From contig JAGMAD010000003.1 in the NCBI GenBank assembly GCA_023130975.1, positions 129,692-193,691 of the forward strand: a DNA stretch of 64,000 nt. Reading direction: 5' to 3'. The notes beneath the pieces were generated by a model. It saw nothing but the letters and a program-made list of their open reading frames with translations, was not told where the DNA came from and ran no database searches. The DNA comes from Candidatus Parcubacteria bacterium (GTDB lineage: Bacteria; Patescibacteriota; Minisyncoccia; Minisyncoccales; JAGMDC01). The position numbers and the translations under genes are program-made. Of the stretch, positions 50,153-55,136 are shown one piece after another; position 1 is the stretch's first letter; each line of letters begins with the position of its first letter.

Positions 50153-50181
50153 TTGACAATGATTTTCTAAAGAGATAAGAT
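50153..50181 (+). promoter_or_regulatory. possible rRNA promoter TTGACA-17-TAAGAT
   Basis: -35 at 50153-50158, ~90 nt upstream of the 16S 5' end. Confidence 0.3.
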
Positions 50182-50283
50182 AAAGATGAAAGAAATAAGG
50201 AAAGTTCTTTGAAAATTTTTAGATTAAGAATTGAGTAAATTTAATTGGTTTTTTAGAGTTGTCCCGATTTTATTTGAGAGTTC

Positions 50284-50315
<32 letters not shown>

Positions 50316-50707
50316 GATAAGGCATGCAAGTCGAGGGGTCACCTTCGGGTGGCACCGGCAAACGGGTTAGTAACACGTGGATACATACCCTAAAGACTCG
50401 TATAACTCGGAGAAATCCGAGCTAATTCGAGATAGTCTGGTAGTCTATTTTTGGAAGTCAACTATAAGAATTTTTAATTTTCAATTTCTAATTTTTATTT
50501 AATTTCTAATTTTCAATGTTTAAAAAGCAACCCTACGGGGAATCCCGAACTTCATTCGGTCTAGAAATCATTAAAAATTTATTAAAAATTAAGAATTAGA
50601 AATTAGAAATTTTCTGCGTATTTAATAATAGATAAAGTTGATTTTTAGGAATAGGCTACCAGTAAAGGTTATACTTTGTATTTCCGCTTTGGGACTGGTC
50701 CGCGGCT

Positions 50708-50743
<36 letters not shown>

Positions 50744-52018
50744 GATGACGAGTAGGGGGCATGAGAGTGTGTTCCCCAACAATGGTACTGAGAACGGACC
50801 ATACTCCTACGGGAGGCAGCAGTCGAGAATATTGGGCAATGGGCGAAAGCCTGACCCAGCGACGCCGCGTGCGGGAAGAAGGTCTTCGGATTGTAAACCG
50901 CTTTTATTAAGGAACAATCCGCCAGTCGGCGGATGAGCGTACTTGATGAATAAGGAGCCGCTAATCACGTGCCAGAAGCGTCGGTAATACGTGAGCTCCA
51001 AGCGTTATCCGGATTTATTGGGCGTAAAGCGTCCGTAGGCGGTTTGAAAAGTCTTTGGTTAAATCCTAGGGCTTAACCTTTGGACTGTCAAAGATACTTT
51101 CAGACTAGAGGGTGTTAGAGGCTGATGGAACGGTCGGTGTAGGGGTGAAATCCGTTGATATCGACCGGAACACCGAAAGCGAAGGCATTCAGCTAGTGCA
51201 ACCCTGACGCTGAGGGACGAAAGCGTGGGTAGCGAATGGGATTAGATACCCCAGTAGTCCACGCTGTAAACTATGGACACTAGCTATTGGTAGTGTCGAC
51301 CCTATCAGTGGCGAAGCTAACGCGTTAAGTGTCCCGCCTGGGAAGTACGAGCGCAAGCTTAAAACTCAAAGGAATAGACGGGGACTCACACAAGCGGTGG
51401 ATCATGTGGCTCAATTCGACGATAAACGAAGAACCTCACCAGGGCTTGACATGCTAGTGAAATCCCGACGAAAGTTGGGACTACCCACAAGGACACTAGC
51501 ACAGGTGCTGCATGGTTGTCGTCAGCAGGTGTCGTGAGACGCTCCTTTTAATAGGGAAACCTGCGCAACCCTTGCCCTATGTTTTACTTGTCATAGGGGA
51601 CTGCCCGGGATAACTGGGAGGAAGGTGAGGATAACGCCAAATCAGCATGGCCCTTTGATGCCCTGGGCTGCACACATGATACAATGGCCGGTACAATGGG
51701 CTGCTTAACCGCAAGGCGAAGCAAATCCCTTAAAGCCGGTCCCAGTTCGGATTGAGGTCTGCAACTCGACCTCATGAAGCCGGAATCGCTAGTAATCGCC
51801 AATCAGCTATGTGGCGATGAATATGTTCCTGAGTCTTGTACTCACTGCCCGTCACACCAAGAGAGCTGGCAGTACCCGAAACCCCCCACCACTTTTCGTG
51901 AAGATATTTAGATTAAGAAGAATTTTTGAAAAAGTCTATTTTAAATTCTTTTGACGGTTTATAATTCATGAAAAGTGGTGGGGGGCTAAGGTAAGGTCAG
52001 TAATATGGGTGAAGTCGT

Positions 52019-52821
52019 AGATGTAATCTACTTGTTGCGACTCTTGAAAGGCAACTTTCAGGAAAAAACTTGGCTATATGCTGGAACATCTGTGTTATAA
52101 TAGAGTAATATGAGTAAAAGTTTATACGCAGACAATCAGCAGGGAAGTCTCCGCCAGCTGGCGGATGACCCCTCAGAGACTACACGCCGAGCCCCTCTTT
52201 CTAAAAGAGAAATTCAATCTTATTTTCTTGGAGCTATACATGATGGAACATTTAGTAGTAATCAAAGATTTCGAATTTCACAGAAAGGTACCCAATGGCT
52301 TAAATTTTTACAAAAACTTTTTGGCAAACTCGGTTACAATTCATGGATTTATAAAGAAGGTAAAAACAGAAAAGTTTATGTGTTAGAAACTTTAGCAGAT
52401 TTTTTAGATTTCAGATTTGATCCTTCGCGATTAAATACAAAAGAAGAAAAGATTGGTTACATAAAAGGATTTTTCGATGCCGAAGGTGGCATTCCTAGAG
52501 ATCACAAAGCAAGATTTTATATTCAGTTGACCCAGAATGATGAAGAAAAGCTCAAAAAATTAAAAGTAATGCTTAGTGATTTAGGAATAAAAACAGGAAA
52601 AATTCATAACCCAAGCCAAAAAGTAGATCCTGATTATTGGAGAATGTATGTTTTAGCAGGTTCACAAAAAACATTCGTAGAAAAAATAGGATCATGGCAT
52701 CCAAGAAAGATAAGAACCTTGAATCAAAGATTCAAGAACCTTGATTCCTTCGGGATTAAAAATTTTAGAAAAGAGGGTGAAGATATAGTCCATGCTCTAT
52801 AGCGATATAGGGACAAATATG
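52019..52821 (+). mobile_element. group I-type intron in the 16S gene (between E. coli-equivalent U1498 and A1499)
   Basis: The 5' exon ends ...GAAGTCGT, the intron ends with G, and the 3' exon resumes AACAAGG. The intron carries a LAGLIDADG ORF. Confidence 0.65.
52110..52802 (+). CDS. LAGLIDADG homing endonuclease (intron-encoded)
   Basis: Two LAGLIDADG-like motifs, FLGAIHDGTF and IKGFFDAEGGI. Confidence 0.7.
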   Translation: MSKSLYADNQQGSLRQLADDPSETTRRAPLSKREIQSYFLGAIHDGTFSSNQRFRISQKGTQWLKFLQKLFGKLGYNSWIYKEGKNRKVYVLETLADFLDFRFDPSRLNTKEEKIGYIKGFFDAEGGIPRDHKARFYIQLTQNDEEKLKKLKVMLSDLGIKTGKIHNPSQKVDPDYWRMYVLAGSQKTFVEKIGSWHPRKIRTLNQRFKNLDSFGIKNFRKEGEDIVHAL

Positions 52822-53015
52822 AACAAGGCATGCGTAGCGGAAGCTGTGCATGGATCATTACATTCTAAAAGTGTTGACTAAAGTTGAAGAGCGAGAATTC
52901 TCTCTTTAACTTTAAGGTATTAATCGAACACCTTAAAGATCGATTTCCTTCTTCGCCTCGCTACGCGAGGTCTCGGAGGACAAACTCGGGACAACTCTAA
53001 GAAACTTCGTAAGAA

Positions 53016-53052
53016 CCCCGCCTGTCCTAATAGACAGGCGGGGCTATTTTTG
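53016..53052 (+). terminator. intrinsic terminator after the 16S gene
   Basis: ccccgcctgtc-ctaata-gacaggcgggg followed by CTATTTTT. Confidence 0.6.
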
Positions 53053-53061
53053 ATAAAATAA

Positions 53062-53327
53062 GGGTGCGGAGTTCGAACCAGAATCAATTTAGCGGAGCGA
53101 ATTTTATTCAGATTCAAGGCGCGAGGAGCGTAATGTATCCAAAGGATACATAAGCGACGAGCAACAAAGAATCTGGATAAAATTCTCCCGTCCAAAGGGA
53201 AGCGAAATAATGGCTGATTTCTTTGTCGCTCCTTCTTGAAGTATTAGTAATACTCCTTCGTCGTCGCTTCTTGAAATCAGCTCTTTATTTCGCTTCTAAA
53301 CTTGATTCTGGTTCGAACTCCTCACCC
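53062..53327. repeat. structured ~265-bp element bounded by 26-bp inverted repeats in the alaS leader
   Basis: GGGTGCGGAGTTCGAACCAGAATCAA at 53062-53087 pairs with TTGATTCTGGTTCGAACTCCTCACCC at 53302-53327. Several internal hairpins are present. Confidence 0.5.
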
Positions 53328-53333
53328 TCAATT

Positions 53334-55136
53334 ATGAAATCCTCTGAACTTCGGAAAAAATTTTTAGATTTTTTTAAAAAAAACAGGCATATCATTACTC
53401 CCTCAAGCCCCCTTTTACCTTCTGATTCTACGGTTCTATTTACTACGGCTGGAATGCAGCAGTTTTCCCAATACTTGGCTGGAGAGAAAGATCCTTTAAA
53501 AGATTTCAAAACCAGACATTTAACTGATTGTCAGAAATGTTTTCGCAGCGATGATATTGAAGAAGTAGGAGATGATACGCATAATACCTTTTTTGAGATG
53601 TTGGGAAACTGGTCAATTGGCCAGGATGAGAAAGGAAATTATTTTAAACAAGGAGCAATTAAATATGCTTTGGAATTTTTAATAAATGAACTCAAGTTAG
53701 ATAAAAATAGATTTTATATCACTATTTTTCGAGGCGATAAAGAAATTTCCAGAGATAATGAGTCAGAAAAAATCTGGCAGAAATACGATATTTCCAAAGA
53801 GAGAATCAAAGAGTTTGGAGAAGAAGATAATCTCTGGGGGCCAGTAGGAGAAGTTGGTGTTTGTGGCCCAAATTCGGAGATTCACTATGATAGAGGAAAA
53901 GAATTTGGTTGTGGTAGAAAAGATTGTGGCCCTAATTGTCCTTATTGTAAAAGAATTGTAGAGATATGGAATCTTGTTTTTATCCAGTATTATAAAGATG
54001 AAAATGGAAATTTTCAGAAGCTTTCTCAAAAGAGCGTAGATACTGGAATGGGTTTTGAAAGAGTTTTAGCAATTTTAGAAAACAAACCTTCAGCTTATGA
54101 AACTGATTTATTTTTACCTATTATTCAGGAAATAGAAAAACTTTGTTCTAAAAAATATGAAGAAAACAAGAAAACTTTCAGAATAATAGCGGATCATATT
54201 CGGGGCTCTGTTTTTTTAATCAGCGAAGGATTTTTTCCCTCTAATGTAGAGCAAGGATATGTTTTAAGGCGGATTTTGAGAAGAGCTATCCGTTATGGTA
54301 AAATAATAGAAGCAAAGCCAGGATTTTTAATTCCCTTAGCAAATAAAACCATTGAGATTTATAAAAATATTTATCCCGAAGTTTTTTCCAAGCAAGCAGA
54401 TATTTTAACTGTTATTCAAAAAGAAGAAGAAAAATTTGAAAAGACATTAGAAAAAGGACTAAAAGAATTTAAAGCTCAAAGCTCAAAGCTCAAAGTTCAA
54501 AACCACAACTTAAAACTCAAAACTATTTCAGGTAAAGTTGCTTTTAACTTATATCAGAGTTTCGGTTTTCCTTTAGAAATGACAAAAGAGATGGCTAAAG
54601 GAGAAGGTTTAGAAGTGGATGAGAGAGAATTTCAGGAAGAATTAAAAAAACACCAAGAGATTTCCCGGGCTGGTAAAGAAAAAAAGTTTGGCGGCGGAGG
54701 CAAGTTTTCGCCAAAACTCCATACTGCTACTCATCTTCTTCATGGTGCTTTAAGAGAAATTCTGGGGCAAAAAGTCAAACAAATGGGTTCTGATATTACT
54801 TCAGAGAGATTAAGGTTTGATTTTTCTTTTGAAAGGAAATTATCTTCAGAAGAGCTCAAAAAAGTTGAGGACTTAGTTAATAAAAAAATAAAAGAAGATT
54901 TAGAAATTAAACAAGAAGAAATGTCTTTAAGGCAAGCATTAAACTCAGGTTCCTTGGCTTTTTTCAAGGAAAAATACCCTAAAAAAGTAACCGTTTATTC
55001 AATCAATAGTTTTTCTAAAGAAATCTGCGCTGGTCCTCATGTAAAAAGAACTGGAGAATTGGGAAAATTTAAAATTATAAAAGAAGAATCAAGCAGTAGC
55101 GGCATTAGAAGAATAAAAGCCATTCTTGAGAAATAA
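53334..55136 (+). CDS. alaS: alanyl-tRNA synthetase lacking the C-terminal C-Ala domain
   Basis: MKSSELRKKFLDFFKKNRHIITPSSPL...FTTAGM and an editing domain with HTATHLLH and CAGPHV. Start placed at the ATG at 53334. Confidence 0.85.
   Translation: MKSSELRKKFLDFFKKNRHIITPSSPLLPSDSTVLFTTAGMQQFSQYLAGEKDPLKDFKTRHLTDCQKCFRSDDIEEVGDDTHNTFFEMLGNWSIGQDEKGNYFKQGAIKYALEFLINELKLDKNRFYITIFRGDKEISRDNESEKIWQKYDISKERIKEFGEEDNLWGPVGEVGVCGPNSEIHYDRGKEFGCGRKDCGPNCPYCKRIVEIWNLVFIQYYKDENGNFQKLSQKSVDTGMGFERVLAILENKPSAYETDLFLPIIQEIEKLCSKKYEENKKTFRIIADHIRGSVFLISEGFFPSNVEQGYVLRRILRRAIRYGKIIEAKPGFLIPLANKTIEIYKNIYPEVFSKQADILTVIQKEEEKFEKTLEKGLKEFKAQSSKLKVQNHNLKLKTISGKVAFNLYQSFGFPLEMTKEMAKGEGLEVDEREFQEELKKHQEISRAGKEKKFGGGGKFSPKLHTATHLLHGALREILGQKVKQMGSDITSERLRFDFSFERKLSSEELKKVEDLVNKKIKEDLEIKQEEMSLRQALNSGSLAFFKEKYPKKVTVYSINSFSKEICAGPHVKRTGELGKFKIIKEESSSSGIRRIKAILEK

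Follow-up and report, generated by a model that had tools for sequence, protein, structure and literature searches.

Nawrocki, Jones & Eddy (2018, NAR, PMC6125680) reported three archaeal (DPANN) group I introns of subgroup IB4 at position 1498 of the small subunit (SSU) ribosomal RNA (rRNA), SSU/1498 being the sole site not previously seen. For bacteria of the candidate phyla radiation (CPR), Tsurumaki et al. (2024, J Bacteriol, PMC11270868) analysed 380 16S rRNA genes, in which several hot spots proved to hold group I introns, and they explicitly mention an insertion at position 1498; their 39 LAGLIDADG_3 open reading frames (ORFs) all lie in 16S genes, 35 of them within group I introns. Their site 16IS10 is, we infer, position 1498. 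Brown et al. (2015), as far as that work is relayed in PMC11270868, gave the first sighting of the CPR 1498 insertion and reported that CPR rRNA insertions are removed from transcripts. Here we describe an insert of this kind in a stretch of 64,000 nucleotides (nt) from a Candidatus Parcubacteria bacterium (assembly GCA_023130975.1, contig JAGMAD010000003.1; this whole stretch is called the window, and all coordinates refer to it). The insert is very probably a mobile group I intron, located between positions 1498 and 1499 of the 16S rRNA gene of this parcubacterial (CPR) host, with a P8 loop that holds the gene of an I-DmoI-like, two-domain LAGLIDADG protein.

In E. coli numbering the position is the same as that of the archaeal SSU/1498 introns (PMC6125680); these have archaeal hosts and belong to IB4, whereas the host of the window intron is a CPR bacterium and its intron is scored by the generic model RF00028 only. 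The CPR 1498 insertions with LAGLIDADG_2 or LAGLIDADG_3 (PMC11270868) agree with it in clade, gene, position, intron class and Pfam family. Two differences can be named: the CPR LAGLIDADG proteins of that study are mostly single-domain, while the window protein has two Pfam stretches and a predicted I-DmoI-like two-domain fold; and where the study describes a "non-domain" N-terminal region in LAGLIDADG_3 proteins, the leading ~35 residues of the window protein are ribozyme core in translation. I-DmoI (from a Desulfurococcus mobilis 23S intron) and I-Tsp061I (from a Thermoproteus 16S intron) are of similar size, are likewise encoded by rRNA introns and have an acidic residue in each motif, but they are only ~20% identical to the window protein, reside in archaeal bulge-helix-bulge introns and have other rRNA targets. 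The only CPR enzyme assayed for site-specific cleavage is I-ShaI (LAGLIDADG_1, 23S site). Experimental self-splicing of bacterial 16S group I introns (2012, PNAS), as cited in PMC11270868 and PMC4853749, concerns other subgroups (IA3, IC1, ID) and probably other insertion sites, and a review of bacterial group I introns (PMC3984707) gives no 16S sites.

An SSU/1498 group I intron family is already published in archaea and CPR and is common in metagenomes. The rarity of the site, implied in an earlier account of this DNA made from the sequence alone (the preliminary description), is thus contradicted by PMC6125680 and PMC11270868, and as a discovery the locus carries little weight: intron family and site are both in the literature already, and this is one more copy. 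It makes minor, testable additions: the in-frame overlap of ORF and ribozyme core, a promoter-like motif and, as a structural prediction, a two-domain fold for a LAGLIDADG_3 protein.

Insertion site

The 16S gene is colinear with the bacterial consensus through GGGTGAAGTCGT, which ends at 52018, and restarts at 52822 with AACAAGGCATGCGTAGCGGAAGCTGTGCATGGATCA (helix 45). The intervening 803 nt begin with AGATG and end with AAATATG (52821). The exons are as follows.

50270..52018, + strand: 16S rRNA 5' exon (Rfam RF00177, 1336 bits), with 3' end GGGUGAAGUCGU (U1498)
52822..52866, + strand: 16S rRNA 3' exon, comprising AACAAGG, helix 45 and the 3' tail GGAUCAUUACAUUCU (from sequence; mature 3' end approximate)

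The limits of the 3' exon were set by comparison with the 3' end of E. coli 16S rRNA. The disrupted sequence is the target of the universal primer 1492R, AAGTCGTAACAAGGTAACC at positions 1492-1510 (AAGTCGTAACAAGG being positions 1492-1505), and this puts the break between U1498 and A1499 in E. coli numbering. The intron splits the primer binding site into 7 nt on one side and 12 nt on the other, so that carriers would be missed or mis-sized in amplicon surveys.

The local order is A1492 A1493 G U C G U1498 / A1499, and it is the 3' strand of helix 44, at its top and in the decoding region, that the insertion interrupts. The preliminary description had correctly given an insert of about 800 nt at 52019-52821, colinearity of the 16S up to U1498 with resumption at AACAAGG and helix 45, a 5' exon ending in U and an insert ending in G, and a 230-residue ORF with both of the motifs that it quoted (52110-52802). 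It also placed the insertion beside the decoding centre, which is right as to the region; its figure of 1-2 nt from A1492/A1493 has to be corrected to 5 nt 3' of A1493.

Intron structure and covariation

At the Rfam gathering score of RF00028 (50 bits) there was no match inside the insert, and a sensitive search was needed. It gave a first match at 52017-52192 (46.1 bits, expectation value (E) 2.2e-10, model positions 5-158), which runs from P1 to P7/P3', and a second to the 3' block J8/7-P7'-P9 (28 bits, E 5.7e-05), the confident part of which is GGGUGAAGAUAUAGUCC plus a hairpin. With E values of this size, here and for the Pfam match of the ORF, chance is no explanation. The full P1-P10 structure was drawn by hand on the window sequence, and its elements are these.

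52019..52821, + strand: group I intron at SSU/1498, 803 nt (RF00028 halves, covariation, homologues above the gathering score)
52013..52042, + strand: P1, with a small extension hairpin between its strands (exon AGUCGU 52013-52018 with guide GCGACU 52037-42)
52031..52036, + strand: P10 strand of the guide, CUUGUU, which complements AACAAG of the 3' exon (52822-52827)
52043..52062, + strand: P2 hairpin with a GCAA (GNRA) loop (8/8 pairs compensatory; in the minimum free energy fold)
52069-74 / 52186-91, + strand: P3, enclosing P4, P5, P6 and the P7 5' strand (Rfam alignment, model 5-158)
52079-84 / 52136-41, + strand: P4 (Rfam alignment, covariation)
52089-94 / 52127-32, + strand: P5 (Rfam alignment, covariation)
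52142-52172, + strand: P6 (Rfam alignment, covariation)
52176-81, + strand: P7, 5' strand (Rfam alignment)
52193-52200 / 52770-52777, + strand: P8, whose loop is the body of the endonuclease gene (5/8 pairs compensatory)
52778..52791, + strand: J8/7 (UGAAGAUAU) and P7 3' strand (AGUCC) (Rfam alignment GAAGAUAUAGUC)
52792..52821, + strand: P9.0 (AU/AU), P9 hairpin with a GCGA loop (52795-52812) and omega-G (52821) (5/7 P9 pairs compensatory)

With the ORF deleted, the window construct folds with z = -4.99, and its minimum free energy structure and centroid jointly recover P1, P2, P3, P4-P6, P8 and P9. In ORF-less homologues a short loop closes P8 at precisely the point where the endonuclease gene stands in the window. 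The P5 extension of relatives is deleted in the window copy.

Covariation was read directly from the aligned, ORF-deleted cores of 16 copies. The P1-P10 structure is paired in 91.7% of cells, against 42-44% when the 3' partners are slid by 1-3 columns; both-sided (compensatory) changes occur in 36 of 66 pairs, and none of 500 shuffles matched any observed measure. Most compensatory changes are in P2 (8 of 8 pairs), P3, P4, P8 and P9, and P3, P4, P5, P6, P8 and P9 are 76-98% paired with such changes, the range for P3 to P6 being 88-98%. The splice-site wobble of P1, U1498-G52037, is invariant (16/16), and the GUU/AAC part of P10 is paired in 97.9% of cells.

Exon-guide covariation in P1 is the strongest single item of structural evidence that the sequences offer. 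Where the exon reads GUUGU (L004) the guide reads GCAAC, the change C1496U being answered by G to A in the guide; where it reads GUCAU (L007 and L010) the guide reads GUGAC, G1497A being answered by C to U. In the same sequences the opposite strand of helix 44 likewise has compensating changes, at 1405 for C1496U and at 1404 for G1497A. That the guide tracks these rare exon changes at 1496 and 1497 would be expected only with selection on the formation of P1 and thereby on splicing, and counts as evidence for it at the sequence level. The two RF00028 halves and the covariation agree with the group I type proposed in the preliminary description; the P3-P7 core, which it had suggested seeking with Rfam, is present in the two matches (46.1 + 28 bits), and the homing endonuclease that it had recognised is indeed of LAGLIDADG type, the Pfam family found being LAGLIDADG_3.

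Inserts of other kinds are known in rRNA genes, namely intervening sequences processed by RNase III, archaeal-type bulge-helix-bulge introns and group II introns, and relatives of the window locus have group II-like insertions near position 1400. For the window insert the probability of any of these is close to nil: the group I core is matched and covarying, no inverted repeat was found that links ~52019 with ~52821, as the stem of an intervening sequence or bulge-helix-bulge intron would need, and the group II families of Rfam gave no match at E up to 10 in 51950-52900. Core match, covariation and unpaired insert ends effectively refute all three.

Several points nevertheless weigh against the insert being a mobile, splicing group I intron. 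Each of the two Rfam pieces of the window copy is individually below 50 bits, since the ~570-nt insert in the P8 loop splits the core. Because the window sequence itself served to draw the structure, the comparison with the slid controls is biased in its favour, very large though the margin is. P7 is 100% paired and invariant, so that covariation is uninformative on it. Some 100 nt of core on the 5' side and some 30 nt on the 3' side lie within the ORF, and translation and ribozyme folding must therefore compete. Splicing and exon ligation in the host, catalysis, the activity of the endonuclease in cleaving DNA and its target site, and the route of ORF expression are what we infer from the sequence.

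Homologues and distribution

A protein search of genomes yielded 19 loci, in all of which (19/19) the gene sits in an insert that ends ...G/AACAAGG and follows ...AAGTCGT or a variant. Metagenomes were scanned with the pattern AAGTCGT...GTTGCGAC...GCTRTAT, which combines exon, guide sequence and P3/J3-4, and at least 120 contigs matched. The metagenome counts that follow are among the matches listed. Both junctions are present on 94 contigs, and fidelity to the site, as directly observed, is complete, with the intron at the same junction in 94 of 94. The last intron base is a G before AACAAGG in 114/114 copies (94/94 metagenome, 20/20 genome or window), and the 5' exon ends in U in every copy examined.

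Seventy-seven of the 94 metagenome copies are 600 nt or longer; in 71 of these the ORF is intact, with 160 or more codons open, and in 6 it is decayed. Sixteen further copies (204-313 nt) are ORF-less and colinear with the ORF-deleted core, and one of 423 nt holds internal ORF remnants only. A homing element is expected to leave such a mixture of intact, decayed and absent ORFs as its gene is gained, decays and is lost, and the mixture is seen directly in the population. Membership of the family is equally direct: RF00028 gives 56.9-62.4 bits on the ORF-bearing relatives L004, L006, L009 and L010, and 58.7-86.1 bits over model positions 1-253 on ORF-less relatives at the same junction, in both cases above the gathering score.

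Among the group I introns of organelles there are some for which LAGLIDADG proteins act as maturases. The window insert could accordingly be a real group I intron that in vivo needs a protein cofactor, for example its own LAGLIDADG protein, and maturase activity of such proteins for group I introns is also noted in PMC11270868. The deleted P5 extension of the window copy and the overlap of ORF and core speak for such a need. We nonetheless hold it to be distinctly improbable, as the core helices are complete and well paired and 16 of the 94 copies at this site lack the ORF and keep intact cores (59-86 bits); the persistence of these ORF-less copies implies that the endonuclease is not generally required.

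The source of the window is a metagenome-assembled genome, and an assembly chimera that joined the intron to the 16S might be suspected. The window allele, with identical protein and context, was however assembled independently in at least 4 samples, on contigs of up to 284,771 nt (GCA_030629575.1), and this excludes a chimera for practical purposes; the same junctions recur on more than 110 independent contigs.

An ORF-less metagenome copy, L073, has archaeal SSU and large subunit rRNA flanks. It is 61% identical to the window intron over 242 aligned positions and has in common with it the core blocks GCUAUAUGCUGGAA, CAAUCAGCAGGGAAGUC, CCUCAGAGACUACACGC and GAUAUAGUCC; flanks and common blocks together mean that the intron family crosses domains. 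The target is among the most conserved sequences in biology, hence the presence of the same intron family in CPR bacteria and archaea.

Some single loci deserve mention in their own right. In a Wildermuthbacteria copy (L019:2271-3142) the longest frame has 118 codons and the endonuclease gene is decayed, with the ribozyme ends intact. A metagenome-assembled genome of Actinomycetota (L020:591-940) has the intron-less junction GAAGTCGT/AACAAGG and, ~150 nt past the 16S 3' end, a 50-residue fragment that is 54% identical to the C-terminal part of the window endonuclease. Further introns occur in the same rRNA operons: 16S genes show matches to group II D1-D4, L004 has another group I intron in its 16S, and L061 has two group I introns in its 23S (the loci being L002:1208-1275, L003:861-948, L021:885-960, L137:592-667, L004:1694-1962 and L061:656-978 and 1517-1822), in agreement with the multi-intron rRNA genes described for CPR. 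The record titles of L013, L015 and L016 read Gammaproteobacteria, Pseudomonadales or Saccharibacteria, and L002, L004, L006 and L010 are labelled "Saccharibacteria"; these loci have a CPR-type intron and 16S 3' ends identical to those of Microgenomates-like copies. Their taxon labels look unreliable, the alternative being that the intron also occurs outside CPR. A candidate non-CPR carrier is L065, which has a complete 16S-23S-5S operon.

The endonuclease

The gene in the P8 loop and its two motifs lie as follows.

52110..52802, + strand: ORF of 230 amino acids, LAGLIDADG_3 homing endonuclease of I-DmoI type (start codon in L5, stop codon in the P9 5' strand)
52221..52253, + strand: LAGLIDADG motif 1, YFLGAIHDGTF (D45 presumed catalytic; aligns with I-DmoI motif 1)
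52461..52493, + strand: LAGLIDADG motif 2, IKGFFDAEGGI (E125 presumed catalytic; aligns with I-DmoI IKGLYVAEG)

The protein matches Pfam PF14528 (LAGLIDADG_3) in two stretches with 65.8 bits (cut-off 22.5, E 4.3e-18), and an identical sequence from a Candidatus Parcubacteria bacterium is annotated at NCBI as "LAGLIDADG family homing endonuclease". A homologue search found 883 sequences; in 35 homologues H44-D45, D123, E125, G126 and G127 are invariant (D123-A-E125-G-G). A single-sequence phmmer search of PDB with the ORF returned chance kinase matches only (E 0.3), while a profile of the 35 homologues reached I-DmoI (E about 0.003-0.01) with both motifs aligned.

The AlphaFold2 model has a mean predicted local distance difference test (pLDDT) score of 79 and a predicted template modelling score of 0.74; pLDDT exceeds 90 over most of residues 30-212 and is below 50 at 1-28 and 213-230. 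Foldseek places I-DmoI at the top (E 6.7e-11, template modelling (TM) score about 0.65), and the best 34 matches are all I-DmoI (target-normalised TM score 0.62-0.68), followed by I-Tsp061I (E 8e-08) and then by WhiA and intein endonucleases. The predicted model has the pseudo-dimeric, two-domain alpha-beta-beta-alpha-beta-beta-alpha fold. Taken together, these results make it most likely that the endonuclease is a two-domain monomer and active.

Overlap of the ORF with the ribozyme core and a promoter-like motif

In the window and its nearest relatives the AUG lies in L5 and the frame crosses P5', P4', P6, J6/7, P7, P3' and P8 before it enters the first LAGLIDADG helix. Of 20 genome copies, 19 have as stop codon a UAG within the invariant GAUAUAGUC (J8/7-P7'). 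The window copy has an additional UUCG hairpin that puts the ORF into another frame there, and its stop is a UAG in P9. Distant relatives (L011-L013, L017, L018) have their AUG just inside the P8 loop instead. The invariant N-terminal sequences NQQGS and DPSETTRRAP, within a leader of ~35 residues, are translated core and are disordered in the model. A variable segment of P6 ranges from 17 to 97 nt. Among the 53 distinct introns with an ORF, all of them pooled, since classing by a frame of at least 190 codons is partly circular, 44 have a segment length congruent to 2 mod 3; in ORF-less introns the three length classes stand at 3:3:3. Because the segment varies in length and yet keeps to 2 mod 3 where the ORF is present, the N-terminal leader appears to be translated.

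Shortly before the start codon there is a candidate promoter element.

52093..52101, + strand: TGTTATAAT in L5, extended -10-like element (candidate), 8 nt upstream of the ORF start codon

Of the 46 distinct sequences of the subclade, at least 26 have the pattern TGnTAnnnT at a distance of 5-9 nt from the start codon, on its upstream side, against a background of 1 per 583 nt, and its conserved positions are those important in the extended -10 promoter. A promoter scan for two hexamers did not flag TGTTATAAT, as there is no -35 element there. In relatives an ACNCAU further upstream forms a covarying stem with the AUG and the codon that follows it (the 5' strand of this stem is absent from the window copy), so that RNA structure explains part of the conservation of the L5 motif.

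That the motif is purely ribozyme structure is therefore partly true, but TAnnnT lies in a loop and is lost in the ORF-less L021 and L053. Its loss in these two divergent copies weakly ties the motif to ORF expression.

One might go further and propose, tentatively, that in the Parcubacteria-type subclade the endonuclease gene is more than cargo of P8: ~35 of its codons would double as core, and TGnTAnnnT would be an intron-internal extended -10 promoter. Its spacing from the AUG would give an mRNA that is leaderless or nearly so, and whose synthesis does not depend on how the pre-rRNA folds. On the sequence data we consider this unlikely. If true, an internal promoter and a leaderless mRNA would fit the 16S of the host, whose 3' tail GGAUCAUUACAUUCU (52852-52866) is without the CCUCC anti-Shine-Dalgarno sequence. 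That sequence is likewise missing from 35 of the 94 homologous metagenome 16S tails, and a Parcubacteria subgroup whose 16S lacks it has been published (PMC9297842).

Proposed splicing and homing

The intron would be transcribed inside the pre-16S rRNA, which would begin at the promoter-like site (50153), end at the terminator (53016) and be closed by the leader/trailer stem.

50153..50181, + strand: promoter-like site upstream of the 16S leader, TTGACA-17-TAAGAT (consensus scan, 10/12 matches; consensus match only)
50248..50271, + strand: pre-16S processing stem, leader half (partner is the trailer 52982-53005)
52982..53005, + strand: pre-16S processing stem, trailer half (inverted-repeat search)
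53016..53043, + strand: terminator-like hairpin and T run past the 16S trailer (11 pairs, 9 of them G-C)

The leader/trailer inverted repeat of 24 nt (92% complementary) encloses the entire gene, including the intron. Within this transcript the guide GCGACU would pair with the exon AGUCGU to form P1 with its U1498-G wobble, and an external guanosine held in P7 would attack after U1498. The neighbouring CUUGUU would then pair with AACAAG of the 3' exon to form P10, the terminal G (52821) would enter the G site, and ligation of the exons would restore the strand GUCGU-AACAAGG at the top of helix 44. The predicted ligated junction is GAAGUCGU/AACAAGGC, that is, GAAGUCGU/AACAAGGCAUGC.

The element could also be dead or non-ligating, the 16S being a pseudogene or excision leaving a separate 3' piece of 45 nt, and some bacterial rRNA intervening sequences are in fact excised without ligation (PMC11270868). 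This we judge very improbable: the U-G wobble, the exon-tracking guide, P10, P9.0 and the terminal G are all present and conserved, the remaining 16S is intact (1336 bits) with its processing stem, promoter-like site and terminator, and a pseudogene would be at variance with the single 16S gene usual in CPR genomes (PMC11270868).

As for the mobility of the group I intron, the endonuclease would cut intron-less 16S genes at the universally conserved sequence, and repair would copy the intron in (homing). The presumed target is the intron-less GGGTGAAGTCGTAACAAGGCATGCG (GGGTGAAGTCGTAACAAGGCATGCGTAG).

Other features of the 16S region

Two further insertions were observed in the 16S gene. At 50430-50660, in the 5' domain (V2), there is a very A+T-rich insertion of ~230 nt with long imperfect inverted repeats (50469-50521 / 50566-50611); an expansion segment and an intervening sequence that is excised are possible explanations. 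At 51882-51985 an additional long hairpin extends the tip of helix 44; its arms of 21 nt stand 62 nt apart and show 95% complementarity. In an Rfam search of the rest of the 16S by E value no intron model matched at either place, and meaningless microRNA hairpin matches were the only ones returned.

Between the 16S terminator and the start codon of alaS (ATG at 53335) lies an element of ~280 nt (53056-53333), bounded by terminal inverted repeats of 35 nt and with two long hairpins inside (fold at -124 kcal/mol, z = -11.6). None of the Rfam families matches it, the window has a single copy, and among the fetched loci this genome alone has it; it could be an insertion resembling a miniature inverted-repeat transposable element, or an unknown structured leader.

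A near-identical palindromic hairpin is found in V3 of the 16S (50917-50933, AUCCGCCAGUCGGCGGA) and at the tip of P6 of the intron (52150-52166, UCCGCCAGCUGGCGGAU). The likeness could be coincidence, a common tertiary-contact motif or the outcome of sequence exchange.

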